From the NCBI GenBank assembly GCA_032718475.1, contig JAUCBJ010002291.1:1-64000 (forward strand): a stretch of 64,000 nt of DNA, in the 5' to 3' direction. The translations under genes were made by a program, and so were the position numbers. A model generated the notes under the pieces. That model searched no databases and was not told the DNA's origin. It was given only the letters and a program-made list of their open reading frames with translations. Positions within the stretch are counted from its first letter, which is position 1; every line of letters begins with the position of its first letter. Below are positions 19,081-61,000 of this stretch, one piece after another. The stretch is from Nemertoderma westbladi (lineage: Eukaryota > Animalia > Xenacoelomorpha).

Positions 19081-19713
19081 CGTGACGGGATCCACCGGAG
19101 TTGGCAGTAATGAATTCCGACCGGTGTGTGTTATACGCGTCGCCGCATCCGTAGGCTGCTAAAGGTGTAGTCTGGATCTATATAGTTTCCCGAAGGCCGT
19201 TCAAATAACTGAGTTTTACTGTCAGTGTTTATAATCGCAGAATGCAATAATAGCACAGTCTGAATATAATAGCACAGTAGTGACGACGGTTAAAACTGTT
19301 CCGGTCTCACAACTGCATAGGACCCAACTGAACCAGTAATCAATAACTGCAATGGTTATATTATTATTAACACATACTAAATTAGCTCTACACTACTGAG
19401 TGGCCTGAGTGTCCAATAGATGCGCTCTAATCACTCCCAATGTGCTCTCCCACCCACCATTGGCTTAACCTGATTAATTGTCACCTCGCCACTCAATGTT
19501 GCCACTATCCCCACGTGCTAGCCTTACTAGCCTGTTTGTCCCTCTAAGGTGGTTTGACCTCTCAACTCTCCCTGTGGCTTATTACGGCGTATATCGCCTT
19601 AGTTGGTTGTGAGGTGACAATATTATTGCTAATGTCACCTCGCCAACTATAATTGGTAAAATGCTACTAATCCCATTTTCGGTGGGTAGTGCAGGGAATT
19701 GAATCCGCTTACA
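19081..19713 (-). repeat. 3' LTR of element A
   Basis: Direct repeat of 29961-30586; begins TGTAAGCGG on the minus strand right after the PPT. Confidence 0.92.
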
Positions 19714-20402
19714 CTCCCCTCCATGATATATTCCCGGTGAGAAGATAGCATCAACCTTAAGTGCGCTTCAATTCCACCGGAATCCAATCTAATATTGGAT
19801 GTGGGGTGGAATTCTCTTCTCAGGGTTGGCTTTCCAGGTCGGCCCCCATGGGTTTGTTATCACTACCCATCCTTGGCACACCTGCGAGCTAGGCTGTACC
19901 AAGGCATCTGGCATCTCTGTTTTAATCGATTGCCCTCACTCCTCACACAATTTTACCTCTCGGACTTTGTTGTCCCTTCCTCTCTCGCCAGTCCCTTGGG
20001 ACTCATCCCCCTCTATGCTCGCTCCCCACACTTGAATCTCGCACCTCTTTTACTTCTTCATACCCTAACACCTCCTCCCCATACTCCTCCCATACTCGAC
20101 CCGTTTTCGCTGTCACTCTCCTCACACTCTTATCGGGTCCCACGCATGTGTACAGCATGTCAGTGAGATCCGTCGTTGTCCCGTCCTCCTGTTTCAGTCA
20201 ATTAGTCGCCAGTCCCAGTAGCTAATTGGAAAAGGTTATATTCGACTATGATAGGTCTATACTGATTATATATTGGGTATGTATATTGATTATTTTACGT
20301 ACGTACATACTAATTGCACTTAATTAAATTGCACTTAGGAGTTTGTACTGCTGCGTCCATGTGGTGCCTTCCAGGCACATTGACATCCCCTGTCTTGGAG
20401 TT

Positions 20403-23002
20403 CTACATTGCTCCTCCCGCACCCTCCGGGAACCATCTAATTTCCTTGCCCCTATCATCATCCTGTCTGGACCGCTTCCTCCCTTCCTGTTTACCCTTGA
20501 GGATACTCATCCTCGCTGATACCATCTTACCAAGCCCCATTGTTGGTTCTTTGGGTGTGGGTGTTATTAAGTCCTGGTATCTCTTCGAAGGTGGTCCCAC
20601 TGAGTGTCCCTCCTGTCTCCCTCTGGTAGCGTCCCACAAGATCATCTTCATCGCACGCGGCATGTGTTCCCCCAGAAAGTCCCTGAATTCGATCCTATTT
20701 TCTGTCCAGATATCTTTGGGTATGGATGACCCCTCTGTACAATGTCGCTGTTGCTACCTCCTGATACGTGAATGGTAGTCTCCTCTTGGTGATCTGCTGG
20801 TGGGCTTCTATATTGATGTTGAAGAAACCCCACCGGAATTACTGGGCCATCATCCTTTGTCGTGTCATGACTCCGATGTCGGCCCACACCTCGAAAATCT
20901 GGAATTTCTCCTCATCGTCCATCCTCAAAGTGCCCTCTAAACTTGCACTTCAAACATCTGTTGTGCAACCTCGGACACGCACCCTTCTTGTGAGTAGACT
21001 CGTGGCAGTAAAGACACGCCATCCCCTTCAGGAAACGGTATAGATAGTTCTTTTGCTGATGGGTTAATCTCCCACAGCAATCGCAACCGTGCATCATTGT
21101 CTCCCGCCCCAAGTCATCCTTGGCTCCGCGTGGCCTCCTGGGTCTATGGAGCCGCTGGTAGGTAAACATCTGGATGTTGTCTTCTCTATCCATGTCGATA
21201 TCCTATGCCAACCTCGGCATCGTTTCTCCAAACACTATTCATGGTGCCGTCCCCGGCTGCTCACCCAGTCTCTGGTACTCGCCGCAAAGTCCATGGCCGG
21301 CTCCCTGTGCTCCCAGGTCCTCTTACCGGGTTTCTCCCAGAAGGCTCTCGCCCCGGTGGCCGTCACCACTCTCCCATCCACCCAGTCTGTGTCTGAGTGG
21401 CCGATCCTTGCTATCGGTGGCATAGACCCGAACTCGTCATCTTCTTCTTCCCCTGCCGGGGGCGCAATCCCCTCTATCGGTGGCATCCCACGAACTCGTC
21501 CTCTTCCTCTTCCCCTGCCGGAGCGTATCCAAACCCAGGAGCCCAGTTAATCCACTGTGTAAGGGACACAGTGGATTAACTGGTATCCGCCCATAGCCTT
21601 TCACCCTTCTACCTCCCTCGGTCTCTTCCTTCTGATGTCACCCTCAGAGCCTGCTGGCATGGGCATTCTTTACAACCCCGATGTTGACTGTGTCGGTGTC
21701 TCTTACATCCAACCCATCGTCCCCCAGCCAAAACTCGTCCGAGGTCTCCGACAACCCATCGTCTAAGTCCTGGGCTTCGAACTCATACTCCTCTCCCCTT
21801 ATATCCGCTTCTCTGCCCGCTGCCTCCCTTCTCTCTCTCCTGGCGACTTCCACTAGTCTCCTCTCCTCAACCCTATCCACCTCCAGTTTCCTCCATGTGT
21901 CTACCTCTCTGTCCACTAGATGTCAGGTATTGTAATATACCGACTCGCCCTTCAGCCCTGGGTGGTCTACAAGACCTTCTAGGGCCACCTTAAAGGCTCT
22001 CCTGTGATTCGGAGGTGCTCCTGATAGTAGAAACGCCGTCGGCTCCCTGCCCATAAATAGTCACCATAATGAATAGGTTTAATAAATCTATGATTATCCA
22101 ATCCTCCTGTAGGATATATCTCTTCTGATATATCTTTATCGCTCCCTTCCGGAAGTGGTATAGTTTCTCCTTTCCTGGTCTCGCTCCCCACTTGAGCGAG
22201 TTCGCAAGTTCTGCTCCATATTCTTCCCGGAACTTGTTCCAGTCCATCGGCTTGTGGCAGACGAGTCCCATCAGTTTTCCCATTGCCACGGCTCCGCTAT
22301 TTCCCGTGTTGTCCACCAATCCCAATCCCTCTGGTTTTGTCATAGCCATGTAGACTACCTGCATGTCCAGAAGATTGGAGGTTCCAGGTCCAATAATTCT
22401 ATCCGCGTCGTTGCGTATCGCCGATCCCACCTTGATCATAGTTTTCTGTCTCACTAGCTCCTGCACCGCCTTCAGTAACCGGTTTAACTTCGGCCCGCTT
22501 TTCTTTCTGTAGGTCCCTAGGTCGAATAGAAAAATATCTCCGTTCGGCACTGCTAAGTGCAGCAATATAGTTCTACCTGATCCTCCCGACCCCCTTCTCG
22601 AGCCCTCGTCATCCTCCACAGTCCCTTCGTCGTTTAGGACCATGTATCCACCCCTCTCCACAGAATTTACAAATCGCCTCCACTCCTTAAACGGTGGTTC
22701 CCTCGGTAATTTGGTATCCCGAACTTTGCCTCGTCCCCCTTTACAACGTAGCGAAGATGCTCGTCGATCGCGTTGTCCAATGACGGTGTCCTGTAGGTCC
22801 CGACCATTCGCCGCTCGTGCATCTCCCTAAACTGATCCTGTAGCGCGTGCACTTTGTGACCCTTTGGGAGTGGTTTGTAGTATCCCTTCGTCTTTTTTTC
22901 CGGATGCCTCTGCATGAAATCCACTAGCAACTCCTTCCTACTCTTCTCCGATTTCCTCTTCTTCACTAGTTTCACCGCCATCACGAATCTGCACACTCTC
23001 AC
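20403..23002 (-). pseudogene. Element A accessory gene (frameshifted): DEDDy 3'-5' exonuclease-like domain, acidic linker, Cys/His zinc cluster
   Basis: GGYMVLNDEG (ExoI-like), ILLHLAVPNGDIFLFDL, VQELVRQKTMIKVGSAIRND...LLDMQ (ExoII), YQKRYILQED (ExoIII-like); then CDCCGRLTH...CLYCHESTHKKGACPRLHNRCLKCKFRGH...FEVWADIGVMTR. Lies between pol remnant and 3' LTR, same strand as gag. Confidence 0.75.
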
Positions 23003-23382
23003 CTAACTGGTGGGGCCTTAGAAAGGCTCAGTTTAAGTAAGAGGGTCGTCAAACAGAATGTTATTAGTTCCGATCAGTGATGGCCTACCTCCTTTGCTGT
23101 GTTTTCCTGTAATTTCGTACAAAATTGCATTTCTAAATTTACAATTTTGTCCATTGCTTTTTATTAATGATTCTAGAATTCATTCCCCAGTTGCCATAAT
23201 TTGTTAATTTTTACTATTATTTATATTCCCCCTTACATGTGCTATTATACTATCTGCCATCTGATTACTTACTTAAGTAACCCATCCCAGTAACAGTTTT
23301 CTTATTACCGTACTAGCTTCATACCAGACAGTTTCCTGGCTCTGTAACAATAACCTAGGTCTGCAGGGGCTAGCAGGCAACC

Positions 23383-23905
23383 TAGGCGCCCTCAGTGCCC
23401 ACAAGTTTATGGTACTGTGTACCCCTCTACTATGGTATGCATACATACCCCCTCTCAATTCCTCACGTGGCGCCCTCAGTGCCCACAAGTTTACGGTACT
23501 GTATAACCCTCTATTACGTTATGCATACCCCCCCTCAATTCCTCACATGGCGCCCTCAGTGCCCACAAGTTTACAGTACTATGTACCCCTCAACTACGGT
23601 ATGCGTACATACCCCCCCTCAACTCCTCACATGGCACCCTCAGTGCCCACAAGTTTACGGTACTGTGTACCTCTCAACTATGGTATGCGTACATACCCCC
23701 CTCAACTCCTCACGTGTCACCCTCAGTGCCTACAAGTTTATGGTACTGTGTATCCTTCTATTACGGTATGCGTACATACCCCCACTCAACTCCTCATGTG
23801 GTGCCCTCAGTGCCCAGAAGTTTATGGTAATGTACCCTTCTGCTATGGTATGCGTACATACCCCCCCTCAACTCCTCACGTGGTGCCCTCAGTGCCCACA
23901 AGTAC
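23383..23905. repeat. Tandem array, ~6 copies of ~83 bp, inside element A
   Basis: CTCAGTGCCC(ACAAG) recurs at ~23391, 23476, 23556, 23639, 23723, 23806, 23888. Confidence 0.93.
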
Positions 23906-24061
23906 TGCGTATGTAAATTAGGTATGTTGGTACATTATTGTACCCATCTGATGTATGTAATTGTAACTACATATACCTATTTATTATATACGTTGGTACA
24001 TCCGTACCCATCAGATGTACATAATGCCTACCTGCAGCGTACCTTGGTACTAGCGTTTTAC

Positions 24062-25700
24062 TTATTTTATTTTATTATTTTGTTTTTGTGGGAAGGGTGT
24101 ATCTCCCTCATTCCCACCCCCCTCAGTCCATCTTATTGGACGACTCAACAACCTAAGGGCGATTCTTCCAGCAGGCAACTCTCCCACTGCCCCCCTGTAG
24201 GTCCTAGGTCCTCTTATTCTTCGCCCCACTCTCCTTTTCGATTTCAAATCTCTTGGATCTGACTTTCCTTTCTCCTCCATCCTAAAATCGGGTCCGTCAC
24301 CTCACTGATCTCATCATGGTCCCCTGGCAGCAAAATGCTACCCTTCATCTTGTCGTCACTTGGTGGTAGAATGCCGCCCTTCATGTCATCCTCACTGGTA
24401 CATGCCACCTTTGCTGGCCTCCCCCTCAATATGTGCGCCGGCGTTAAAGCCCCCGATGACCCTTGGTAATCCTTCGGTACGCATAATGGTTTACCATTTA
24501 ATGCCCCCTCGCACTCTGCCAGCCCCATGTGCAACACGTCTCCTCTAACTTTCCTATCTCCATTACCACCCTTCATTATTAGCTCCTCTCCCTTTGGATT
24601 AACCCTCTTACATCCTCCCCCTCTCCACCTTGTCTTCTTATTCGACCTCCTCTCTATCGGTATGCTTCTTAATTAGACCAGCGTCTCTTCCAGACATCTC
24701 TCTGGATATCTCGCCATCCACTCTTCTCCATCCTCATACCGATACTTGCCAGGAACATCTATCTCCCATCCCATCGCCTCTAGGTCCTGTGCGTTGAACC
24801 CATTCTCCTCCGCCCACTCCCTTGCTGTGACTTGTCGTCCTGTCTCCTCTACCAACAGTACTTCTCTGGATTCATCCTCCACCCTTTCCACTATACGTGG
24901 ATGCAGATCCATACCCATCCCTGACTCCTGGTGTCCTTCCCCGGGCTGCTTCTCATATGGGACCTCCCCATCACCCATCTTTGACTTCTGCTCGGGCCAC
25001 TTCCCATATAGGACCTCCCCATCGCCCGTCTTTGACTTCTGTTCAGGCTGTTTCCCATATGGGACCTCCCCATCGCCCATCTTTGGTTTCTGCTCTATGT
25101 CCTCAACAGTACCGGACAGCATGCATCCAGATGTTTCGGATACGCCAAACGGTGTCCTCGTCTTCATTGGGCCAGTGAGCATCCACCCAAATGGCGCGAG
25201 AATGGCCATCGGGTCTCTCTCTCTGTCATCGCTGAAAATGGTTTGTAGTCTCTCGTGGGCCGTCGGACAGTCCATGCTGACTATTAGAGACACTTTTGGG
25301 ACATCCAGTTCCGGTACGGAAAAGTCGATGTCTTCCAGGTACTTGTATTGCTCAATCTCGATCTTCGTAGGTCACCTGGCGTTAATGTTGATTGACTCTA
25401 TTATCTGAATGGTTTCGATTGTAGCCCCATAGGTGCACCCTGGCTTTATCGCTGCAATCTCGCATCGTCCCCTCCTCATCTTCATGACCTCATCTTTGCT
25501 TGAGATCGTGGTCACTGCTATTTTACTTGGCCTGGTTCGTAATCCTATCTTCTCGCCACCCAACTCTCTGTTAGCGTGAATGCTGCTCCACTATCGACCA
25601 ACATTAGTGTTGTAACCGATAGCTCATTCTCCCCTATTATTCTCACTGGTACCACTCCAAGTAGTACCATTCCCCTCTTCTTTGCTCCCATTGTGCTTGT
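24062..25700 (-). pseudogene. pol: Element A collapsed pol: aspartic protease + integrase C-terminal remnant, RT/RNase H absent
   Basis: VVPVRI...LMLVDSGAAFTL; LIVSMDCP...AILAPFGWMLTGP; LAECEGALNGKPL...LTPAHILRG; LPAGRIAL. No RT or RNase H motifs between them. Confidence 0.75.
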
Positions 25701-28700
25701 CGCCATCGTCTGGCCTCCAGTCCCATCAGTCTCGTCATATTTTACCGGCGGTTCCTGGCACTCATCCTTCCTGTGTCCTCCTACCGCGCATCAATGACAT
25801 AGTCCATTCTTACCCGTATAGGCTACCCGATCTTGTTTAAGCAACGCCTGCCAGTGTTTACAACCGAACCTATGTAATTGGCATTTGTATTGGGGGTTGT
25901 AGCGTTCCTTGTATAGTGCTTCATGTATTGCGCTTAGATTCATATCTAGCGGTTTAGTGTTTTGGTTACTTGGACTCGCGGCCTGCTGAGAGTATTGGGT
26001 TTATATTTGTTTGTGTTGTTACTTTGCTTCTGTCCCTGCCACGGTGTGGCTCTACTTCCATCTCTCTGTGGACTAGAAGTCCCCTGCGTGGCCGCATACA
26101 GTAGCAACTGCCTCACCTTCGGAAGTACATTTGCCGCCCTATGTTCGGGTTTGGGTTGGCTGTATTCGGTTTTTGGTGCCTTTCCTAGACTGTCCTCACT
26201 ATAGACTGGATCTGTTATTAACTCCACCTCGTAGTTAAGGAAGTTCGACATCTCCTCCAACCCTGGCTCCGCACCTTTCTTTTCTCGGGGCGATTCGGCC
26301 CACCCACTATATTTTTGTAATTGTCCAATGAAATCCTACAAAATTTGGGCTGTTGGTGAAACAACTATAGATGATGACTACCAAACCTTAAAAAGTTAAA
26401 ATTTCATAATTTTGATGAAAAATAAAAGTATTCCCAGGACAAAATTACAAAATTTTTCGTTTTCTAAAAACTAATAGTGTGGCAGTGTTGGCTAGATTTA
26501 GTAGGTTTTTCAAGACGCTTACATAGTTGCATACAAGCTTACATACTTGTATAGAGCATTAGAGTGATCCAAACCAATAAAAATAAATAAAAATAGCCCA
26601 AACATAAATAATTACTAAATCACGAATGACTTTGTAAAATTCGAAAATTTCAAAAAATTTGGTGCTGGAGACCAAATTTTGAGGTGGCACCCACATCGAA
26701 AAGTAGAAATTCAATTACAACATCGTTTTTTGCAAAAGATGCGGCATTAAATTTGGCTAATTCTCAATAAAAATTGGGCCGGTACGTAATGTGGTTGCAT
26801 AGTTACAGCAACTAAAAACTAGGAAGGGGCCGTTTTTGGTTGTGTATATTGCGGATACTGTAGTGGGGGAATGTCACCCTGTCCCCTCCCTCCCCCCACC
26901 GATGTTATGTTTGGTACTGAGGTTGATGTCATTATATTCGGGCCCATACACCTATCTGCAATACCCCCCCCTCCCCTGGATATATATTGTATCCATGCAT
27001 GTTACAGTCATACTGATGTGCAGGTACCAGTATAGGCCTATCAGGTTCTTGCCTACTAACTGGTATGTATGCCGCAATCTCCGGGTCCAATCCCGGCATC
27101 CGTACTACCCTATTGCCTACACTATCTCTTCCAGCATGGCCTATAGTATGTGCAGTAAGGCCTACAGTATGTCCTGCAGTCTGCCTGTGTCCTTCCGGAT
27201 CGAAGTTTAATCTTCTTGAATATTCCAAGAACTCCTCCCCGCGACTACCATATCCTCGATTGGTAGCTACATTCCAACGGAAGTTTCCCTCCAATCCCCT
27301 CTTCTGTCTTCTTCCTCGTACCGGTACACTCTGTACCCCTCTCCCGGTGTGTGGTATATTTTGCCAGGTTGTGTTTCTCCGGGTGACAGCAATCTCCCAA
27401 AGTATGACCCCACCGGCTCTCTCTCTCTCTCTCCACTTCGACTATCGACGGTTCGCTGTCCGTCCTTTCTCTCTGGTTGCCCGTAGCAACACTTCCTCGT
27501 CCCTCCTCACTTCTTTTGATTTCAGCATAATGTCCTCCTTCATGAGATCTCGTATCGACCTCCTGGATGAACTCCACTGTTCTTCTTCCGCCTTCCGAGT
27601 GGGCTCGATGTTTCCTCGTTTGGCCGCGCACCAATGTCCCTCCCTCTGCCCGGTTGGACATCCCCGTGGATATTCGCAGTCCTCTTATTATCATCTGTCA
27701 TCGGGTGCCACGGTTCATTTATCTCACCGCGTGCATTATCTGCCGACGCTCCTGGGGCCTCTGTTGCCCCCCCCCCCCCCCCTTTCATCCGTCGTCGGGT
27801 GCCACGGTTCACTTAACTCACCGCGCGCATTATCTGCCGACGCTCGTGGGGCGTTTGTTGCCCCCCACCCCCCCCCCCCCTTTCCTCCATCTTCGGGTGC
27901 CACAGTCCACTTAACTCACCGCGTGCATTATCTGCCGACGCTCATGGGGCGTTTTTTGACCCCCCCCCCTCTCGTCATTAATTGGTTGGTGTGGGGTGCC
28001 CATAGCCCCCACCCCCCACCCCGTCACCTCTTATCTCGCCCTCATGCCCATGTTCCCCTCCAGTCGACACATTAGTTCTATCTTCACTGGGTTTATTTAG
28101 CCGAGTTCCTCCCTGCGCAACTGCGTGGCTTTGTAGGCCTTCTCTAGGCATATTGCCTGTTTCCCCTACGTTTATATTAATTGTACCGCCACTAGCTTCA
28201 CCCTGTTGATTTATAACGTCGTTATTTAGGTTATATTGATTAATCTCGCCGGGATTATTTATTATATTATTATTTGACGTACCCGGATTGTTATTTAAAT
28301 TATTCAAATTATTTTGTTCACTGATATTTACATTATTATTTAAATTATTTTGTTCACTGTTATTAAAATTATTACATAAATTATTTTGTTCACCGTTATT
28401 AAAATTATTACCAAGTAAAATATTATTTCCTGCAAGAAGACTAACGGAAGACTACGGTACTATTAATATTAACGTTTTCACCAAAAGTATTATCATTACC
28501 CCCCCCCCCCCCCCCCCCCCCCGCCCGTACGGTCACACCAGTCTTGGGTCTGTCGTCCGGTACCTGTAAGTGGGGTATTAATAAAGGTTTCCATCACCTC
28601 TGGTTCCTCATAAATACTTCCCGAACCAGCCTCGCTCTCTGATAAACCCATTTTTGCCAGTTCTAATCGGCGCTTTTGCTTCGCCTGATACTGCATTAAC

Positions 28701-29866
28701 CCCTCAACCGGGTATGCATATCATCCCCCATTCGTTTACCCGCCCTCTCTCTCTCTCTCTCTCCTCTCTAACACTCTGGTCGGCTAACTCTGCCTCTCTC
28801 GCCTCTCGTTCTCTACGCTCGTTCACTTCTCTCTCAATCCTCTCAGCTTTCCTCGCTTCCCACTCTTTGCGCTCATTCTCTTCTCTCTCAATCCTCTCAG
28901 CTTTCCTTGCTTCCTGCTCTCTGCGCGTGTTCTCTCCCCTCGCCTCTTGTTCTTTGCGCTCACTCAATTCTCTCTCCTCCCGCTCTCTGTAGTTTCTCGC
29001 CACCCTCTCGGCCCTCTCTTTACACTCTTTCGCTAGTTCCCTCTCCCTCTCTAGTAACGCGGTCCCCTCATCCAGCTGTCTCTCTAATTCCTTTTGATCC
29101 AGTGCGACAATGTCTAGTTGACACGCCAGATCTATCTCTAACACCCTTCTTGCTTTCGCAGAGGATGTAGCGGACTTTTCGGTTGCGACGCACTCCCGTC
29201 GCCTGCTCATCCTACTAATTTTCATGTGCTTACTGGGATTCCTACTAACTGACGACACTGAATCTTCGGGGTTGACCTCGGATTCGGTGTCGTGCGGGTC
29301 TGCCCATCCCACTAACTTAATCCCCCTCGCATCTACTAGATAAGGCCATACGTACACCACACTGGCCTCCACCACCTCGGATCGCCACAATTCGAACAGT
29401 TCTGTGGCGACCCCCCTCGTCTTCTCACTTGCTAGTTCCCCCTACCCAAATCGGACTAGGTAGCTAAAATGTTTTTTGCACTCACCTAGCCTCTGGTACA
29501 ACTTGGGCTGGTCTACCTTTCTTCCCTCTCTAGCGTCCTTCAACAACCTCCTGGTGGCAGTGTACCCTCGTTGTAGGTGATCGCTCATCCCGACGTCTTC
29601 CTCCTGGACTTGGCCTTCCCTCCTCGTCCAGCGCCGTACCGTTAGCCCCACCATTGCCGTTCCGGTGGGCCGTTCGCCGCCCTCAGCCACTGGTTGACTG
29701 GTGACTTTGGTACCTCGTTTGCCGCTGTGATCTCGCATCGACTCGCTCTCCTCTCTTCCTCGTCCCTTGTTGGCGAATCCAGTATGGCGGGCCGGTACTG
29801 CCTCGTCGCTGCTTCCCGAATCGTCTCATTTCTGTCACTCGGGATTCGCATCTTGTGTCCGCTCAT
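25700..29866 (-). pseudogene. gag: Element A gag, fragmented
   Basis: E/R-rich coiled coil (28704-29390), Asn- and Gly-rich low-complexity tracts, BEL motif FLNYEVELITDPVYS (25946-26260), degenerate knuckles CQLH.../LCH*CAVGGHRKDEC. Confidence 0.72.
26295..26830. mobile_element. AT-rich DNA-repeat fragment inside element A gag
   Basis: Sharp GC drop; AAAATTTGGTGCTGG...AAATTTT...CGAAAA motif shared with the 50590-51290 repeat family. Confidence 0.6.
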
Positions 29867-29960
29867 GTTGGCGTCATTGTGGTCACAGTTCCTTTAGGTT
29901 GTTGGGTTGTTGGTAGTTTTAACTCGGCAGTTTTAACTGTGAGTTGATTGGCGTTTTAAC

Positions 29961-30586
29961 TGTGACGGGATCCACTGGAGTTGGCAGTAATGAATCTCGA
30001 CCGGTGTGTGTTATACACATCACCGCGTAGGCTGCTAAAGGTGTAGTCTGGATCTATATAGTAGGCCGAAGGCTGTTCAAATAACTGAGTTTTACTGTCA
30101 GTGTTTATAATCGCAGAACATAATAATAGCACAGTCTGAATATAATAGCACGGTAGTGACGACGGTTAAAACTGTTCCGGTCTGACAACTGTATAGGAAC
30201 CAACTGAACTAGTAATCAATAACTGCAACGGTTATATTATTATTAACACATACTAAATTAGCTCTACACTACTGAGTGGCCTGAGTGTCCAATAGATGCG
30301 CTCTAATCACTCCCAATGTTCTCTCCCACTCACCATTAGCTTAACCTGATTAATTGTCACCTCGCCACTCCCTGTTGCCACTATTCCCACGTGCTAGCCT
30401 TACTAGCCAGTTTGTCCCTCTGAGGTGGTTTGACCTCTCAACTCTCCCTGTGGCATACGGCGTATATCGCCTTAGTTGGTTGTGAGGTGACATTATTATT
30501 GCTATTGTCACCTCGCCAACTATAATTGGTAAAATGCCACTAATCCCATTTTCGGTGGGTAGTGCAGGGAATTGAATCCGCTTACA
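29961..30586 (-). repeat. 5' LTR of element A
   Basis: Minus strand TGTAAGC...CGTCACA; direct repeat of 19081-19713; gag starts ~100 nt downstream. Confidence 0.92.
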
Positions 30587-31479
30587 TAAACCCCAAATTA
30601 AAGACCAGAATAGAACTACCACTCATAGATGGATCCCTTCAAATTCGATGGAACTAAACATGAAGTATACATACAATTCCATACATACCACAACAAAATA
30701 CTATCAAAGAACTTATCAGCATCCGACCTTCACGACATCGTGTGCCAAAACACCTAGATATAGAAGATGGTTTCCAATTACCTTTTAATGGATTATAGAC
30801 AGTGAGTGCAGACATCCGGCAAATATCATATCAGGTAGATTCTAAAAAGCCTCATAACAACAAACATAACAGATAATCTACCGAGTATTAAGGCCTTCGC
30901 AAACAGAATAAAGGAGGCACTCATCACACTAAAAACTCTTAACAAGCCTCAGGAATTTAACTCCTCATCTAACATGACATTGTAGAACCCCTATCAAAAT
31001 TAACACTTTGACTGTCTTTGACGCACCGGTGCGTCAAATGGTAGTCAATAGATTGTGTCATGACGCATATAACCGTCATTGATTCAAACTATGATGTAGA
31101 GGAAATTGTAGGTGATTTGTTAAAATTTCATGTGCCACCTTGTGAACAGATCCCAAATTCATTTTGTGACATCATCCATGACGCATATATGCGTCATATT
31201 ACCACTGCACAATGTCTTAAAAAATATAAAAAATATACCGAGATTCAGGATTTGGAGGCAACTAGAGAGCTTTATAATTATGCCAGAATATGAAATCTAT
31301 AATAAAGTTTTGGTGAGTGTGAAACAGAAAACACCAGGCACAACCCAAAGGCTCTTCTCTCTTGGCTATTACTTGTAAAACAGGGATGTCGCCACACTAA
31401 CTCCCAAGGGAGTACACTCTGAAACTACACAATACTTTTCTACTCCCCACATAGAAGACTGGTTTCCATTTTACCTCAG

Positions 31480-32185: not shown

Positions 32186-33081
32186 TGACGCATATTTGCA
32201 TCACTGACTCATTTTGGTAAACTGCCATTTGTAGGTTTTCAGTGACGCATATATGCGTCACGATTAAATTTTTCTTTGACACATAAACACAACCTATTTT
32301 ATGATTTTATAACACTCAAAGTGAATGAAATGACGGACAGGCAGCTGATAGAAATTAACCGTATCCTACCGGTACTGCTGCACTGTCTGACTTTATCGAA
32401 TATTAATACGAAAATATAATATCGTTCAACTACACACAATATTATGTTTGCGAATTAGCGTGATGCTAAAATTTTAACGAAATTAACCATTTTTCAGCAC
32501 AAAATTAGATATTTCAACAAAAATTTAACAACTTCCTTGGAATAATATTTTTTCTATCTTTGGTCATTTATAGAACATGTTAGTAGAAAAAAATAGACAT
32601 ATTCCGAAATTTTCAAGAGTTGCCCGAACCTGGTCAATTTTGTGGTCAAATCTGGATTACGTTGTATAGCAGTAATACTACGTATGGCTCTTCGGGGAGT
32701 GAGAATAATTTAAACGTTAATAACTCCAGTTCAACTGTGCCGTTTTAACTGTAACAAACACCGATGGAAAGACAATAAAATTATCTGTTGGATTATATGC
32801 TACAACCTGTAAAAAGATTTTAATGTATGTGATGCAAATAGTTACGAATATTTGAACATAGTGATTGCAATGTGAAATATTTAAGAGAAACTCGGCCATT
32901 TATATATTATTCTGTGTAATGTACAGTAGACCTAATGTTTATTATAACATGGCTGAGGTGATCTTCAATTACTTTGGTTACATTTTGTCACTTTACTGAT
33001 CTGATAATCCATTGCGATGGTAAATAAAAACAGTGATCAATTAATACTTGCCTGGAATAATAATTACACGCCTACTGATAG

Positions 33082-33526
33082 TTGCTTTATTGCGGCCTAC
33101 TGATGTTGCTTTATTGCGGCCTACTTAAAATATTTGCTTTATTGCGGCCTACTTAAAATATTTGCTTTATTGCGGCCTACTTAAAATATTTGCTTTATTG
33201 CGGCCTACTTAAAATATTTGCTTTATTGCGGCCTACTTAAAATATTTGCTTTATTGCGGCCTAATTAAAATATTTGCTTTATTGCGGCCTACTTAAGATA
33301 TTTGCTTTATTGCGGCCTACTTAAAATATTTGCTTTATTGGGGCCTACTTAAAATATTTGCTTTATTGCGGCCTACTTAAATTATTTGCTTTATTGCGGC
33401 CTACATAAAATATTTGCTTTATTGCGGCCTACTTAAGATATTTGCTTTATTGCGGCCTACTTAAAATATTTGCTTTATTGGGGCCTACTTAAAATATTTG
33501 CTTTATTGCGGCCTACTTAAGATATT
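33082..33526. repeat. 28 bp tandem array, left arm (~16 copies), split by element B
   Basis: Unit TTTGCTTTATTGCGGCCTACTTAAAATA; continues in register after 44838. Confidence 0.96.
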
Positions 33527-34804
33527 TGTAAAAGCTTTTGCGGAATTGCCCGGTTATTTTTCCCCGTAAAGTACTCTGTAGTTGGTTTAGCAGGCATAAA
33601 AGGCCGTGTCATTGCTGTACCGGTGTTTTTAGGGGACATAAAAGCTATTTCTTCTGTATGTGTACTTTAGAGGACATAATTAGCAATTCTATGACGCAAC
33701 GCCCTAGATCCTCTTGAAACAGTGTCGTTACTATGACGACAGCTAACGGCTGAGCTTTACATGTGTAGCTTGCCCGGAGCCTTGCTTGGTTCTTTGTTCT
33801 GCTCAGCTCAAAATGACGACATCTATCAGCTGTGTCCACTTGGAGCTTTTTGCCATTCGACCAATCAGAGATTCCCTCTTTGTGTAAAAGCTGTACAGCA
33901 GAATTACAGGATTCAGTACTGACGTTTCCCCCACGCCTAGAACACCGGCCGGGGAATGTTTTCTGACATTAGAGCGTCTTTAATTATAAGATCATCAAAC
34001 GGTTATCTCGGTTTTGCACCTCGGTCTTGGTCAACTCGGTTAACTCGGTACTGACTACAGCACCACGGTTTTGCACCTCGGCATATGATTAAGCACCCTG
34101 ACGTAAACTGCTTTTCGCCGCATTATTTACTGCTATTTACTGTGTTGTTAATTGTATCGTTCGTTTACATATTATTATTGGGAAGAATATTGATAACGAT
34201 CCAAAAACCCAATCATCTTGATACACTAAGGTTAGAGAGACCGGTTACATATAACAATTTGCGACATACATTATCGTGGTTTGTAGTGAGTTCAATGCTA
34301 CTTAATAGGCCCTACAAATGTCGGTTGTTATTCTCTTTATATATGATTAAAATCAGTGAATGTCGGCAATTCAGTGTGCAGTTGTGTGCAATAGTTTGCG
34401 TGTGCTTGACCGAGTAACAAAGCATTTCCTAAAGAATGCACTTTGGTGATCTATAAGACATACCGTTGTGTATAGTGTAAGTCATAGCTCTGTTTAAATA
34501 GATAGAGCGCCACGTCCTAAAGGAACTGCTAATATTTCCCAAAAGGTGAATAATATTTGTCAGAGATTATATATTAACGATCAATCGAATAGTACGGTAG
34601 GCCTGCACCGCAATCAAATTAAAGCATCCAAATCCAGTCTCCCGGGTATATCCATCGGGTGAATGGTCGCGCACAGACTGGCTTTGGCTAATGTTAGAAT
34701 TATTATAGGTGTTCAATACTTGTCATAGGCTGGAGTAGATTTATAACCTAGAAGACATATAGATTTGGCGGGTTAAACTGCCAAAGGTCTTAAAAGCGCG
34801 AACA
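33527..34804 (+). repeat. 5' LTR of element B (1278 bp)
   Basis: Starts TGTAAAAGC, ends GCGAACA; contains CCAATCAG (33861) and TAATTATAAG (33981). Confidence 0.95.
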
Positions 34805-37054
34805 ATAACCGTTTGCTAAATTATTGATTGCAGTGTAGGCAATAAATACAGTTTAATATTGTTCTGGTAAGAACAATAACCGTTTGTAGGATCTTGATTG
34901 CGGCGTAAGCGATCAAGACTAAAGTACCGGTCGACCGGTAACCAGTAGGCCTGACTGCCTGATCATCCGGACTGGTACTTACAACAGTACAGGTACAGCA
35001 GTATTATTCGATTTTGATAATTATATACCGGTAGGTCTTGATATTAAATCGGGGACTGCAGCCCTGGTTTTTTATTGGGATTTTTACTTATTTCTGTCAG
35101 TTTTATTTACTAGTAGGCTAATATTGAGCAGAAGGCGTGTAACCCTGCTCAGATTGTTCAGATAATTGTAGGCTGGACTGTTGTCTGACTGTTGATTGGG
35201 TCTGGAGAGATTGCGGCGTGTGTAGAGTCTTTCCGATAAAGTGCCAGTTAGTAAGTTGGGGCATCTTGAGTTGGAAGGTCAACCCCCTCCTAAAGAATAA
35301 GTCGTACTACCGTGTTAGAACGCATACTAACTAACCATTTTGGAATCTGCATATACTGTAGTTTATTTAGGCTTGATAGTAGTCTGCCAGCGTTTTAGCC
35401 TGTGTTTGTTTGTGTGGTCTGTTCAGGTACCGTAATAGTTATTATTCAGATATTTTGTAGGCTGGATTGTTGTCTGGCTGTTATTAGGTCTGAAGGGATT
35501 GCTGTGTGTGTAGAGTGTCTGTCCGATAAAGTGACGGTTAGGAAGTAGGGGCAGCCAGAGCTGTAAGGTAAATCCCCACCTAAAGAATAAGTCGTACTAC
35601 TAGGTTAGAACGCATACTAACTAACTATTTCGGAATCTGCACATACTGTAATTTATTTAGGCTTGATGGTAGTCTGCCAGCATTTGGTTTGTAATTTGTT
35701 TGAGTAGTTTGTACGGGTAGCGTAATATTTATTATTCAGAGTTTATGCGATTATTCGCAACATTCATATCCCTAAGTTTATTCCTACAGTAATTGTGCTT
35801 GTTATATATACCGTTATAGTTAAATTAACCCCGGTACTACACGGGCTGCTTGGCGTAGGTAAAGACTGGTGATCTTGTGCACTGGTCACTCCAGCAGATG
35901 CCGTGGTTCTTTTAGCTGTTCAAGTATTTTTTAACTACTGATTATTTGTTGTACAAGTACTTGTACCTAATTTAGGGTTTAGTGTACAGTGCTTTCCGAG
36001 GGTAATTAGTGTGTAGGCAGTATATTTGTGTTGTAAAGTAATTAATAGGCACGTTGGTTCTGGTAGACCGCGGTAATTAACTTCTAGGTAGGGACACTCC
36101 GTGATACATAACGTAGTACCTATAGCGATACGGCTATAGGTCGTCAGACGGTGGTATTTTCCTATCTGGACAACACAGTGTATTTACTACTACTTATTAT
36201 TTTCAAATACCGTAGTATCCTGTCCGTTGTAATAACCAGAAAATCTAACACTCTGTTAGACTGGTTTGTAGTTCCCTGTAAAATTACCCTAAAATTTCGT
36301 ACGTAATATTTTTGTTGTGTTTAATTAGAGATTTAATCTCACCCGTATCGTAAGTAATTCGTAGATAAGTAACTTAGGAAGTAGAATTATTTGTTTTAAT
36401 GTCCAATAAGTAGCACTTCACTGAGAACGCACAGCCTTTGTGTAGTGACTACTTCCCAGAAATAATAACATCTATTTCAATATTGTAACAAAACCCCTCA
36501 TACGGGTATATATAAATCCACTAAATCTATTAATAAAATAGTAGGCCTGTTATACAACACTTAGGTCTTAATATCAGTTGGACTGCTGCTCAAATAACGG
36601 TAATAAAGTAAGTAAAGTAACCAAGTAACCCCTAACATTCAGAAATTCAATTATTTTTAAAATAATTGACATACCGGTATTTACAATAGGCTTATTATAT
36701 TTATTCTATAAATTTAGGCTGAAATCATACCGGTATTCTGTAATTAATTATAGTCTGTAATAATTATACTTATATATAATATAAGTGTCAGCTGTATACC
36801 GGTATTCACGATAGGCCTATTATATATTTATATATATTTGTGCTAAAATTATATACCGGTATTCTGTGACAAATCTAGTCTGTAATAATACTTATATATC
36901 TACTAAAAGCATACCGGTATTCTAGTATATTATATATATCACGCTACACTGAGTAGCAGTATCGGTAATTAATTATTAGGCTAACAGTGATACTGAATTA
37001 CTAGACTTGCTTTAACTGTAATATAGCAGTAGGCATTCAACTGTACAAACAAAC

Positions 37055-40667: not shown

Positions 40668-42258
40668 GGACTCCATAACGTAATAACATATGGAGTGGGC
40701 GTGTGACTATATCATTTTATATTTGTTTTTATTTTATATTTATGTATGTATTATTATGTAATTTTATTATAATCGTTTTCTTTAATTTTATTTAGTAGAA
40801 TGTTATTTTAGTGATTATTTAGTAGATTAGTGCAATATATTAGTGTTTATTACGTACGTAATTACTTATAATATATATTTAGTGCGACGGCGAGAAATAA
40901 TTATTTTTTCTCTTTCCTTACTGTCCGTATCATATTATAAATACATGACTACAGTAAGATGAAATGTCCGTACTTATTAAAGTACAATAAAGCCACTACT
41001 ACATTCAAGTATTATTGGTAGGCAGAGTATTAGGAATGCAAAGTTCAGATCCTCGTGTCTCGGCTAAACCAAGCTCTGGGTAGACCTTGGAAACGACTTG
41101 CCTCTTCACACTGACATTGCTTTGTGCGATATTACGCTCATACCATATATAATAATACATATAGTAGTGTGATGTCCCTCTAACAGTAGCGTGAAACGCA
41201 AATAAATCTGTTAAACCTTTTGACCATCTGTAATTCTAGTCGATTAAGATATCGCGGCACCCACCGATATACTTGAAAGACAAATTCTAGAATCAGTGGT
41301 TAACGTCCCCAGACAAGTTCTGGAATAAATTGGTGCCCATCTCAAATATTAATTATTTAATATTTATAAATCTATAAATCAAAATCTGTAAAATTCAGAT
41401 CCTTTAACAATTCTAGTCGATTAAGATATCGTAGCCCTTACCGATACTCTTAAAAGACAATTTTCATAGAATTAAGGATCCTATGTCCCCAGACCTGCTC
41501 TGGAATCAAATTGTGTCAATTGCACTATCAAATAATAAAATTTCAGGGAATAAATTTGAATTCATATTTTAATGAATTTAATAAATTGTCATTCTGTGCA
41601 ATTTATAACATTCCCAAAATTCCATTAATTAATAGATCATGGGAGCGGAGATTCATCCTATTGAGTGTATTAGAGTGCGAGAATCTCCAACATATAGTCA
41701 ATAGCCGATAAAATTTATAAAATCATATATAAACGAGATATTGGACCATTAAAGAATTACTATTAAATAGCATCCCAGATCTGTATGCATTGGAATTACC
41801 CTAATTCTACCGCTAGCTTTCCATAATGTCACCATAGTAACACCCACGCTAGAATTAGAAACAAGTTAAAAGGAACAATAAAAACTTGCCCATTACATAG
41901 AGTAAGAAATAAATAGCGCACTGCTAGTATCCAAGGATACATAATAATAACGTGGCATTCTGGAAGGCACTGACTAACGGACAAATGGCCCGAGTGTGTG
42001 CAATCAATTTGTGACAGTTGTGTGTGTGGAGTTTGTGAGTTTATAGGCGAATGTTACTACTAAAGTGTGTTTACAGTAGCGAGTCGCAATTGTGAAAGTA
42101 ACCCTAACTCTCCAGTAAGAACCTGAAGTGAATCTAAGCCTTTGGGACGGACAGTGGAGTGACTCGTGCTAGCGTCGTTGTCGTTGTGTAGCTACACGTT
42201 GGCGGAAAACACAGCGACGACGATACATTTGCGCTGAGCATCTTACACTGTCCGGGGG

Positions 42259-42310
42259 CTGATTGGGGTAGGCAGCGACGCTCGCTAGCCTAATTATAAG
42301 CTCATTATAA
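42259..42310 (+). promoter_or_regulatory. Putative internal promoter of accessory gene B (inverted CCAAT, GACGCTCGC, TATA)
   Basis: CTGATTGG...GACGCTCGC...TAATTATAAGCTCAT; last 15 nt match LTR 33981-33995 at 14/15; layout shared with element C. Confidence 0.5.
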
Positions 42311-43699: not shown

Positions 43700-44838
43700 T
43701 GTAAAAGCTTTTGCGGAATTGCCCGGTTATTTTTCCCCGTAAAGTACTCTGTAGTTGGTTTAGCAGGCATAAAAGGCCGTGTCATTGCTGTACCGGTGTT
43801 TTTAGGGGACATAAAAGCTATTTCTTCTGTATGTGTACTTTAGAGGACATAATTAGCAATTCTATGACGCAACGCCCTAGATCCTCTTGAAACAGTGTCG
43901 TTACTATGACGACAGCTAACGGCTGAGCTTTACATGTGTAGCTTGCCCGGAGCCTTGCCTTGGTTCTTTGTTCTGCTCAGCTCAAAATGACGACATCTAT
44001 CAGCTGTGTCCACTTGGAGCTTTTTGCCATTCGATGGTTATCTCGGTTTTGCACCTCGGTCTTGGTCAACTCGGTTAACTCGGTACTGACTACAGCACCA
44101 CGGTTTTGCACCTCGGCATATGATTAAGCACCCTGACGTAAACTGCTTTTCGCCGCATTATTTACTGCTATTTACTGTGTTGTTAATTGTATCGTTCGTT
44201 TACATATTATTATTGGGAAGAATATTGATAACGATCCAAAAACCCAATCTTCTTGAACACTAAGGTTAGAGAGACCGGTTACATATAACAATTTGCGACA
44301 TACATTATCGTGGTTTGTAGTGAGTTCAATGCTACTTAATAGGCCCTACAAATGTCGGTTGTTATTCTCTTTATATATGATTAAAATCAGTGAATGTCGG
44401 CAATTCAGTGTGCAGTTGTGTGCAATAGTCTGCGTGTGCTTGACCGAGTAACAAAGCATTTCCTAAAGAATGCACTTTGGTGATCTATAAGACATACCGT
44501 TGTGTATAGTGTAAGTCATAGCTCTGTTTAAATAGATAGAGCGCCACGTCCTAAAGGAACTGCTAATATTTCCCAAAAGGTGAATAATATTTGTCAGAGA
44601 TTATATATTAACGATCAATCGAATAGTACGGTAGGCCTGCACCGCAATCAAATTAAACCATCCAAATCCAGTCTCCCGGGTATATCCAGCGGGTGAATGG
44701 TCGCGCACAGACTGGCTTTGGCTAATGTTAGAATTATTATAGGTGTTCAATACTTGTCATAGGCTGGAGTAGATTTATAACCTAGAAGACATATAGATTT
44801 GGCGGGTTAAACTGCCAAAGGTCTTAAAAGCGCGAACA
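43700..44838 (+). repeat. 3' LTR of element B (1139 bp, lacks ~139 bp)
   Basis: Nearly identical to the 5' LTR except for loss of ~33861-33999. Confidence 0.95.
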
Positions 44839-45155
44839 ATATTTGCTTTATTGCGGCCTACTTAAAATATTTGCTTTATTGGGGCCTACTTAAAATATTT
44901 GCTTTATTGCGGCCTACTTAAAATATTTGGTTTATTGCGGCCTACTTAAAATATTTGCTTTATTGCGGCCTACTTAAAATATTTGCTTTATTGCGGCCTA
45001 CTTAAAATATTTGCCTTATTGCGGCGTACTTAAAATATTTGCTTTATTGCGGCCTACTTAAAATATTTGCTTTATTGCGGCCTACTTAAAATATTTGTCT
45101 TATTGCGGCCTACTTAAAATATTTGCTTTATTGCGGCCTACTTAAAATATTTGCT
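44839..45155. repeat. 28 bp tandem array, right arm (~11 copies)
   Basis: Same unit as 33082-33526. Confidence 0.96.
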
Positions 45156-45714
45156 GCGTCCTAATCAAGAAAATTTATGTCGATTATTATGCTATGAAAT
45201 TGCAATAATGCAACAGGCATAGCTTCAATTTTACATAATTATGAATGTTTAAATGAATATGAATATTTGAATATTAAAATATTATTTATTATTTGTTTCC
45301 TTTTGGTGTACATCCATATCCAACCAATATCCCTAGGAGGCTGATATTGATTGGACGTACAGTTAATTTGAGGTAAATTCACCAAATATGTATTAAACTG
45401 ACGGCAGGCTTTACTATTATTTTTCAAGATCTAAGAAATATAATAGATCTACTCGCTATTATATAGAGAAATTCTGTATTGTATTTGTATTTGTGAGTGT
45501 GAAGTCGGTTGGTTGGGCGTTTTTTCTGTTCTTCTCCTATTTTTTTCAATTTTCGCACCCTTCCCCCTACAGTCACTCGGCTATCCTGCCTGAGCCATCC
45601 GCCAGAACCTATTCCTTACAAGAATTCCCCTCTTCCTATTATCATCTCACTTACACCCACCCCCCTAGCACACGCATCCCTTGTTGTCTTTCACTTCTGT
45701 ACATGACTGACAAC

Positions 45715-59059: not shown

Positions 59060-61000
59060 ACTCGAGAGAATAAGGGTGCAGAGCCGGGGTTGGAAGAGAC
59101 GTCGAACTTCCTTAACTATGAGGCGGAGTTGATAACGGATCCAGTTTATAGTGAGGACAGTCTAGGCAAAGTACCGAAAACGGAATACAGCCGACGTAAA
59201 CCAGAACATAGTGCGGCAGTCGCTACCACATGCGGCGGCCACACATGGGTCTACAAATCCACAGAGCCCTGGGAATAGAGCCACATCGTGGCAGGGAAAG
59301 AGACAAAACAACAACAGCGGTAGATACAAACCTAACACCCAGAATAGGCCGAGTCCAAACAACCAAAACACTAAACCACTCGACATGATTCTGAACGCGA
59401 TACGCGATGCGCTATATGAGGAACGCTACAACCCCGATTACAAATGTCAATTGCATAGAAGCGGGACACACAAGACCATAAACTATAAGCAAGACCGAAT
59501 AGCTTATACTGGAAAATTTGGACTATGTCACTGATGCGCGGTAGGAGGACACAGGAAGGATGAATGTCAAGAACCTCTGATTAAGTATGCCGAGACTGAT
59601 GGAACTGGAGGCCAGACGATGGCGATGAGCACCATGGGAATACGGATGAAGAGAACAGTACTACTCGGAGTAGTACCAGTGAGGATGATTGGAGAAAGCG
59701 GACGATCGGTTATAACATTAATGTTAGTCGATGTCGGAGCAGCGTTCACGCTAATGGAGAGTTGGGTGGCCGAGAAAATAGGGTTGAAGACCAGGCCAAG
59801 TAAAATGGCAGTGACCACAATATTAAGCAAGGACGATGTCATGAAGATGAGGATGGGATGGTGTGAAATCGGAGCAATAACACAAAAATGGGGCTACCAT
59901 CGAACCCATCCAAATAATCAACTCCAATTATCAACGCCAGGCAACCTACAAAGATCGAGATCGAACAATTCCAGTACCCCTGGACGGCATCGACTTCTCT
60001 GCACCCGAACTAGATGTCCCGAAAGTGTCTCTCATAGTCGGCATCGATTGTCCGACAGCCCACGAGAGGCTACAAACTATTTTCGGCTATGACAGAGAGC
60101 GAGACCCAGTGGCCATTCTCATGCCATTTGGGTGGACGCTCAGAGGCCCAATAAAGATGAGGATCCCGTTTAGTGTATCCAAATCCTCTGGATGCATGCT
60201 GTCTGGTACCGTTGAGGACATAGAGCCGAAGCCAAAGACGGGCGATGGGGAGGTCCCATATGGGAAGCGGCCCGAGCAGAAGTCAAGGACAGGCGATGGG
60301 GAGGACCCATATGAGAAGCGGCCCGGGGATGGATATCAGGAGTCGGGGGCGGGTATGGATCTGGAACCACGCGTAGTGGAAAGGGTGGAGGATGAGTCCA
60401 GAGAAATGCCGCCGATAGAGGAGTCAGGAGGAGGAGCAACAGCAAGAGAGTGGGCAGAGGAGAATGGGTTCAATACACAGGACCTAGAGGCAATGGGATG
60501 GAACAGGGACGTTCCTGGCGAGTATCGGTACGGGGATGGGGAAGAGTTGATGGCGAGATATCTGGAGAGATGCCTGGAAGAGACATCAATCCAACTGAGA
60601 GGTATACTGATACCAGGTGGATTGAACAAGAAGATACGGTGTAAAGGAAGAAACAAAAGAGGATTGATCCAACGGGAGAGGAGTCGATGATGAAGGGTGA
60701 TGGGAGCGGTATAGTTAGAGGAGACGTGTTGAACACGCAGCTGGCAGAGTGCGAGGGGGCTTTAAATGTTAAACCATTTTGTGTACCGAATGATGACCAA
60801 GGGTCATCGTGGGCTTTAACGCAAGCGCACATATTGAGGGGGAGGCCAGCAGAGGTGGAATGTACCAATGACGATGAAATGAAGGGTGGCATTCTGCCTC
60901 CAAAAGACGATTATGAATTCTGTGAGATAACCGGAAGGATGGACAGGAGACAGGAGAAGAGGGAGGGGGGGGAGGCAGTGACGGGCCAGATGTGGATATG
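59060..61000 (+). mobile_element. Fragment D: diverged second copy of BEL family A (gag end, protease, collapsed pol)
   Basis: Colinear with 26290-24250 (minus): FLNYEAELITDPVYS, LMLVDVGAAFTL, PFGWTLRGP, GDGEVPYGK repeats, LAECEGALNVKPF...LTQAHILRG. Confidence 0.9.

Follow-up and report, generated by a model that had tools for sequence, protein, structure and literature searches.

Element A, at 19081-30586 (minus strand) of the window (the whole stretch of 64,000 nt that was analysed), is a non-autonomous BEL/Pao copy, and its family probably primes with RNA from its own LTR rather than with a host tRNA. The bases that follow the 5' LTR are complementary to a motif within that LTR, and the same relation, spelled in different letters, recurs among related BEL/Pao families.

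The 5' LTR of element A has 626 nt (29961..30586, minus strand, TG...CA) and is 93.9% identical to the 3' LTR of 633 nt (19081..19713, minus), which ends CACG and is preceded by a polypurine tract at about 19722-19714 (minus). The 5-bp TSD reads GTTTA on the 5' side (30587..30591, minus) and GTTGA on the 3' side (19080-19076), alike in four of five bases. These are the features of a BEL/Pao LTR (0.2-1.2 kb, TG..CA, TSD, polypurine tract), with deviations at the last base of the 3' LTR and at one TSD base. The proteins are also of BEL/Pao type, with profile matches to a Gag knuckle, a protease and an integrase tail; the broken BEL/Pao-type aspartic protease region lies at 25165..25697 (minus; protein match and profile search) and the integrase C-terminal remnant at 24400..24546 (minus; profile search). 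The best of the full BEL/Pao polyproteins that match the protease region is P0038 (E 7e-9), which bears Peptidase_A17 and DUF5641. The RT and RNase H that BEL/Pao elements encode between protease and integrase are absent across element A by profile search, and we therefore file it as a non-autonomous derivative and not as a complete member. The branch of BEL/Pao to which A and its relatives belong is, we assume, the Sinbad/Suzu side.

An RT profile found no match in element A, in element B (see below) or in a fragment at 59063-60910 (plus strand) that is 77% identical to 24353-26287 (minus) of element A and has the same join of protease to integrase tail, without RT/RNase H. Since A and this fragment have the RT-less join in common, the RT-less form seems old, and it may have spread as such. 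Element A also contains internal tandem repeats at 23385-23941 and 27673-27962, whose units are ~82 and 94-98 nt long. An ORF after the integrase tail (21990-22826, minus) may resemble a 3'-5' exonuclease, by motif, but neither Pfam nor PDB, nor a search for homologues among longer proteins, bore this out. No tRNA genes were detected in the 64,000-nt window, and an Rfam search returned only a sub-threshold mir-754 match.

The preliminary description of this DNA drew attention to the junction of element A, and its account of the letters is accurate. The 5' LTR (30586-29961) ends CACA and is followed, without a TGG primer-binding site, by GTTAAAAC at 29960-29953 (minus), the primer-binding position adjoining the LTR; two further copies of the site lie downstream at 29937-29928 (after CACA) and 29923-29915. 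The complement, CAGTTTTAAC, occurs in both LTRs, at 30174-30165 and 19298-19289 (minus), and matches 8 nt at the first site, 10 nt at the second and 9 nt at the third. An arrangement of the Tf1 type, i.e., a site of 10-11 nt after the 5' LTR with its complement in the element's own LTR, is therefore present in A, counting 8 paired nt at the first site and 10 at the second. The 5'-LTR copy of CAGTTTTAAC, the candidate core of a self-primer, is contiguous, without an intron, and lies 214 nt before the LTR end. It is followed after 56 and 69 nt by the hexamers TATAAA (30109) and AGTAAA (30096), which resemble poly(A) signals and may act as such (30091..30109, minus); TATAAA could instead be a TATA box. 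Site units 1 and 3 align with each other, and the extra copies are a local tandem duplication of site and leader that stands outside the mechanism considered below.

Taken alone, the match in element A exceeds chance only modestly (P 0.013-0.033). In the permutation test that had been proposed for it, 5000 dinucleotide shuffles of the LTR reached the anchored 8-nt match in 1.3% of cases; it was equalled at 332 of 18102 random positions in the window (1.8%), and the best 10-nt match within the first 60 nt after the LTR has P 0.033. These values for this copy of A, together with the near-private nature of the duplications, speak for a chance A/T-rich 8-mer that was then duplicated locally. We nevertheless regard such an origin as highly improbable, since longer, co-varying matches are found in A's family and a complement is found in 11 of 12 related families; the family variants, a blind scan and the relatives, all described below, largely refute it. 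The family and clade data make the complementarity of A real.

Variation within the family was surveyed in public DNA contigs of one organism (runs X1, X2, X3 and X5), in which the family is very abundant (29500-30586; more than 1000 contigs in each of X1-X3). The depth that passes from the LTR end into the first post-LTR bases is 1249/3945 (32%) in X1, 694/2021 (34%) in X2 and 66/101 (65%) in X5, and only 50, 17 and 0 units, respectively, continue into the duplicated stretch, which implies that the present copy of A has the duplicated junction almost to itself. Among the matches listed, five loose-end cells (23 contigs; the cells are majorities of 2-9 contigs with an agreement of 0.58-0.68) break 7-8 bases past the LTR. 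In two cells at 29953 (12 contigs) the adjoining letters keep following the LTR motif up to 10 nt, a sign that the first site of this copy is probably one base short, and two of the three cells at 29954 (9 contigs) run one base longer, one of them also with a transition. On the LTR side, an extra base behind 30167 accounts for 10.6%, 12.7% and 4.2% of the depth in X1-X3 and is not seen in X5, where a loose end at 30171 carries the extra base plus the transition and so mirrors the site variant. For the variant in the fifth cell (X5, at 29954), the matches listed include no counterpart on the LTR. Two site variants thus appear mirrored in the LTR motif, a co-occurrence at the level of the population and not of linkage within one element, and other copies of the family apparently carry a site of 10-11 nt. 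The exact LTR pattern of A's family was found in no metagenome loci, and no relatives were found in viral contigs.

A second element in the window, element B, has its 5' LTR at 33527..34804 (plus strand; TSD ATATT) and its 3' LTR at 43700-44838 (plus), and encodes a BEL/Pao Gag (DUF1759) and an aspartic protease, without RT. Its motif CAAACGGTTAT (33996..34006, plus) is the complement of 34805-34815 and of a second copy at 34876-34886. The match of the first 11 post-LTR bases to 33996-34006 has a shuffle P of 0.0006 and is equalled at 52 of 17916 random window positions (0.003). The leader of B at 34824..34840 (plus) is also predicted to pair over 17 nt with the LTR at 34601-34617, in the manner of the Tf1 accessory duplex, and none of 200 shuffles reached this duplex. 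A and B had been put forward as unrelated cases that arrived at the same layout. Both are non-autonomous BEL/Pao derivatives, however, and so are not independent inventions; the layout they share was probably inherited and not invented twice. In both elements the first three bases of the TSD equal the first three post-LTR bases, an identity that we hold to be a coincidence because it is not seen in the related loci L061 and L064.

The LTRs of B are otherwise more than 99% identical, except that the 3' LTR lacks about 140 nt of the 5' LTR (33861-34000 vs 44035), a gap that ends inside the motif and leaves it partly missing there. The insertion of B splits a 28-bp tandem array (32961-33526 and 44839-45300). 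After the protease, at 41600-42300 (plus), there is a broken cysteine-rich frame that looks by eye like the remnant of an env-type glycoprotein and that has no Pfam match.

An alignment of P0038 and three relatives retrieved 80 metagenome loci and 6 genome-contig loci, a set of 86 drawn from a single branch of BEL/Pao. The 3' LTR served to locate the end of the 5' LTR in 13 of these loci, which were chosen by eye and represent 12 families; L026, L028 and L061 lack a clean CA at the LTR end. None of the 13 starts with TGG after the LTR, and 12 of them, in 11 of the 12 families, have a complement of 10-15 nt in their own LTR at an offset of 1-4. This complement is contiguous in three families (L020, L026, L064) and in eight families is split by a predicted GT-AG intron (GTRAG..AG; L003, L006, L011, L016, L037, L061, L073, L081, L082); L028 has no complement (7 nt). 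For each of the twelve positive loci, 0 of 60 shuffles reached the observed length. When sites were compared with the LTRs of other families, the matches on a given LTR reached at most 7-9 nt, apart from 11 for L003/L006, which are a related pair, and 10 for L011/L016, and in the sister elements L081 and L082 the letters differ on both sides while the pairing is kept. The proposal of a shared, tRNA-independent complementarity of LTR and primer-binding site thus holds for 11 of 12 related families, between which the letters change.

A blind scan of 68 loci gave an intron-spanning match of at least 11 nt in 17/68; the reverse strand gave 1/68, and shuffles 2.1%. Some of the 17 look false (L022, L024). 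Contiguous matches were not clearly enriched (13/68 vs 7/68 on the reverse strand). All loci fall in one 68-row branch of a quick RT tree (SH-aLRT 99). Element A, which has no RT, is placed by fragment scores only, closest to L024, L023, L073 and P0038, three of which offer no readable 5' LTR (P0038 being a protein without DNA); L073 bears the complementarity signature. No credible LTR junction was found in L023, L050, L024 and L025, the loci closest to A. Contiguous and intron-split forms occupy nearby positions on the quick RT tree (L064/L045 and L008/L037, the forms of L045 and L008 being blind-scan calls only), which suggests repeated loss or gain of the intron. In A and B, a search for a spliced LTR gave a match no longer than the contiguous one, and a candidate splice acceptor at 30172 in A is contradicted by a family variant without the AG. 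L081, L082 and L084 are whole or nearly whole BEL/Pao elements in contigs filed as bacterial MAGs, likely as a result of host contamination.

Not all of the layout noted in A and B is general. Counted on 11 loci (L011 was dropped as a duplicate of L016, and L028 as negative), three features that had been put forward as shared did not generalize: a second site within 160 nt occurs in 0/11 relatives, a complement starting with CA in 4/11, and pairing from the very first post-LTR base in 0/11, all 11 having offsets of 1-4 (in the blind scan, L056 and L065 have zero offset). In A and 10/11 relatives, hexamers resembling poly(A) signals occur in the 100 nt after the motif, and no common TATA box was recognized by eye upstream of the motifs. 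A Tf1-type downstream duplex with the LTR is missing in A (P 0.76-0.79) and in all 11 relatives. What the relatives do have is a second helix on the upstream side of the core, usually beyond a bulge of 2-4 nt, with an energy of -7.3 kcal/mol over 11 loci, where cross pairs give -4.8 (P 0.0017), although in L016, L037 and L073 it is no better than the cross means. In element A the corresponding extension lies at 30177..30182 (minus) and is predicted to pair with the bases that follow site 2, across a bulge of 2 nt; for A alone it is not significant. Site 2 thereby shows the shape seen in the relatives, core plus upstream helix past a bulge, and its pairing energy is -17.2 kcal/mol, compared with -8.3 for site 1. 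The 8-nt pairing of the first site has -6.6 kcal/mol. The upstream helix of the relatives implies that transcription probably starts upstream of 30174 and not at the motif.

Complementarity is what these comparisons establish, and it could also belong to a structural or regulatory helix that serves packaging, dimerisation, translation or a switch dependent on splicing and lies over the primer-binding position, while some other primer is used. Folding of the leader, another check named in the preliminary description, came out both ways: the pairing is present or absent depending on where the RNA is cut, with a summed probability between ~0 and ~0.99. That instability fits a structural role, as does a 9-bp helix in A between the LTR junction (29966-29958) and the leader (29890-29882; P 0.02), which would compete with the pairing. 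We think a purely structural role unlikely all the same, because in A, B and 12 of 13 relatives the edge of the helix falls 0-4 nt from the end of the LTR, just where minus-strand synthesis must start, because no other recognisable site is present in these elements, and because purine-T opens the site in A, B and 8/11 relatives, and AGT in the other three. A host RNA, be it a tRNA fragment or another small RNA, could also be the primer, the LTR match then being secondary; the ICTV profile gives the Belpaoviridae as tRNA-primed (PMC8742986). A host primer we hold to be very unlikely: the sites differ by family and each fits its own LTR far better than those of others, the site in A's family varies in step with the LTR, and both TGG and an 18-nt site are absent.

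If, as we prefer to read the data, the LTR RNA is itself the primer, replication would proceed as follows. Transcription would start within the LTR, upstream of 30174, and the motif would fold onto the post-LTR site through a core of ~10 bp, often with a second helix past a bulge. By analogy with Tf1, RNase H from the RT of a helper element would then cut directly behind the motif, so that a 3' end remained on the site and could serve minus-strand synthesis; element A, without an RNase H of its own, would depend on the helper for release of its primer. During plus-strand synthesis the primer would be the template from which the site is copied anew; a change in the motif would thereby reach the site, and the two would be kept in step. 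The motif of the 3' LTR, in a second RNA, may be an alternative primer, and a start site downstream of the 5' motif would consequently change the model without killing it. In relatives with a predicted LTR intron the motif would be formed only once the intron had been removed. As the upstream LTR sequence of the progeny would come from the 3' LTR, the intron would be kept unless that copy were spliced, and splicing of the 3'-LTR copy would yield intron-less families such as that of A, from which the intron has likely been lost.

Self-priming is described for Tf1. The first 11 bases of Tf1 pair with its own site and are released by RNase H (PMC7175516), a three-duplex structure makes use of LTR sequence downstream of the primer (PMC10085805), and the site begins ATAAC (PMC11042837); Tf1/Tf2 of S. 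pombe, Tj1, Tosmo and the Tf1/sushi group have no tRNA site and carry a complement of 10-11 nt in their own LTR (PMC7175516, PMC10085805, PMC4600332). A and its relatives resemble this group in lacking a tRNA site and in having a post-LTR site complementary to their own LTR; element B goes further, with a site that starts ATAAC, as that of Tf1 does (PMC11042837), and a downstream accessory duplex. The proteins of A and B, in contrast, are BEL/Pao-like and not those of a Ty3/gypsy chromovirus, and neither gave a match to a chromodomain. The accessory helix lies upstream of the core, the downstream type occurring in 0/11 relatives and not in A; the core spans a predicted intron in 8/12 BEL/Pao families; and transcription in A's branch probably starts further upstream than the primer. 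On this sequence comparison, element A likely uses its own RNA as Tf1 does, yet stands outside the Tf1/sushi group.

According to the ICTV profile, the Belpaoviridae are primed by tRNA through an 18-nt site for tRNA-Arg or tRNA-Gly, and their replication is poorly understood (PMC8742986). A and B resemble them in their TG..CA LTRs, 5-bp TSD, polypurine tract, Gag knuckle and Pao-peptidase-type protease and differ in the absence of RT/RNase H; the 18-nt tRNA site is absent as judged by TGG, which is missing from A, B and 13/13 relatives. Other elements without a TGG site include Dictyostelium Skipper, fungal GalEa copia and bivalve TRIMs (PMC5006619, PMC6934838), which differ in having a polypyrimidine tract or internal hairpin; no LTR complement is reported there for Skipper. 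A term search of the accessible text of three BEL/Pao surveys (PMC554778, PMC3118150, PMC6238403) found no mention of PBS or tRNA, and a literature search by title and the start of the abstract, with subscription journals and Repbase reports outside its scope, found no report of self-priming in BEL/Pao.

It is about an even question whether the following holds for a large animal branch of BEL/Pao as a whole: that an LTR primer split by an intron and assembled by the spliceosome replaces the tRNA, that it is cut from a longer, bulged duplex and is not the opening 11 bases of the mRNA, and that families like that of A arise repeatedly by intron loss, with their primer ready-made. Self-priming is known from the Tf1/sushi group of gypsy elements, to which this branch would, if the proposal is true, add a different RNA architecture. 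Element A contributes covariation within a family and the intron-less state. Priming in most families of the branch would then be tied to the host's control of splicing, and there would be a simple rule for locating the primer site in elements that are annotated as having none.
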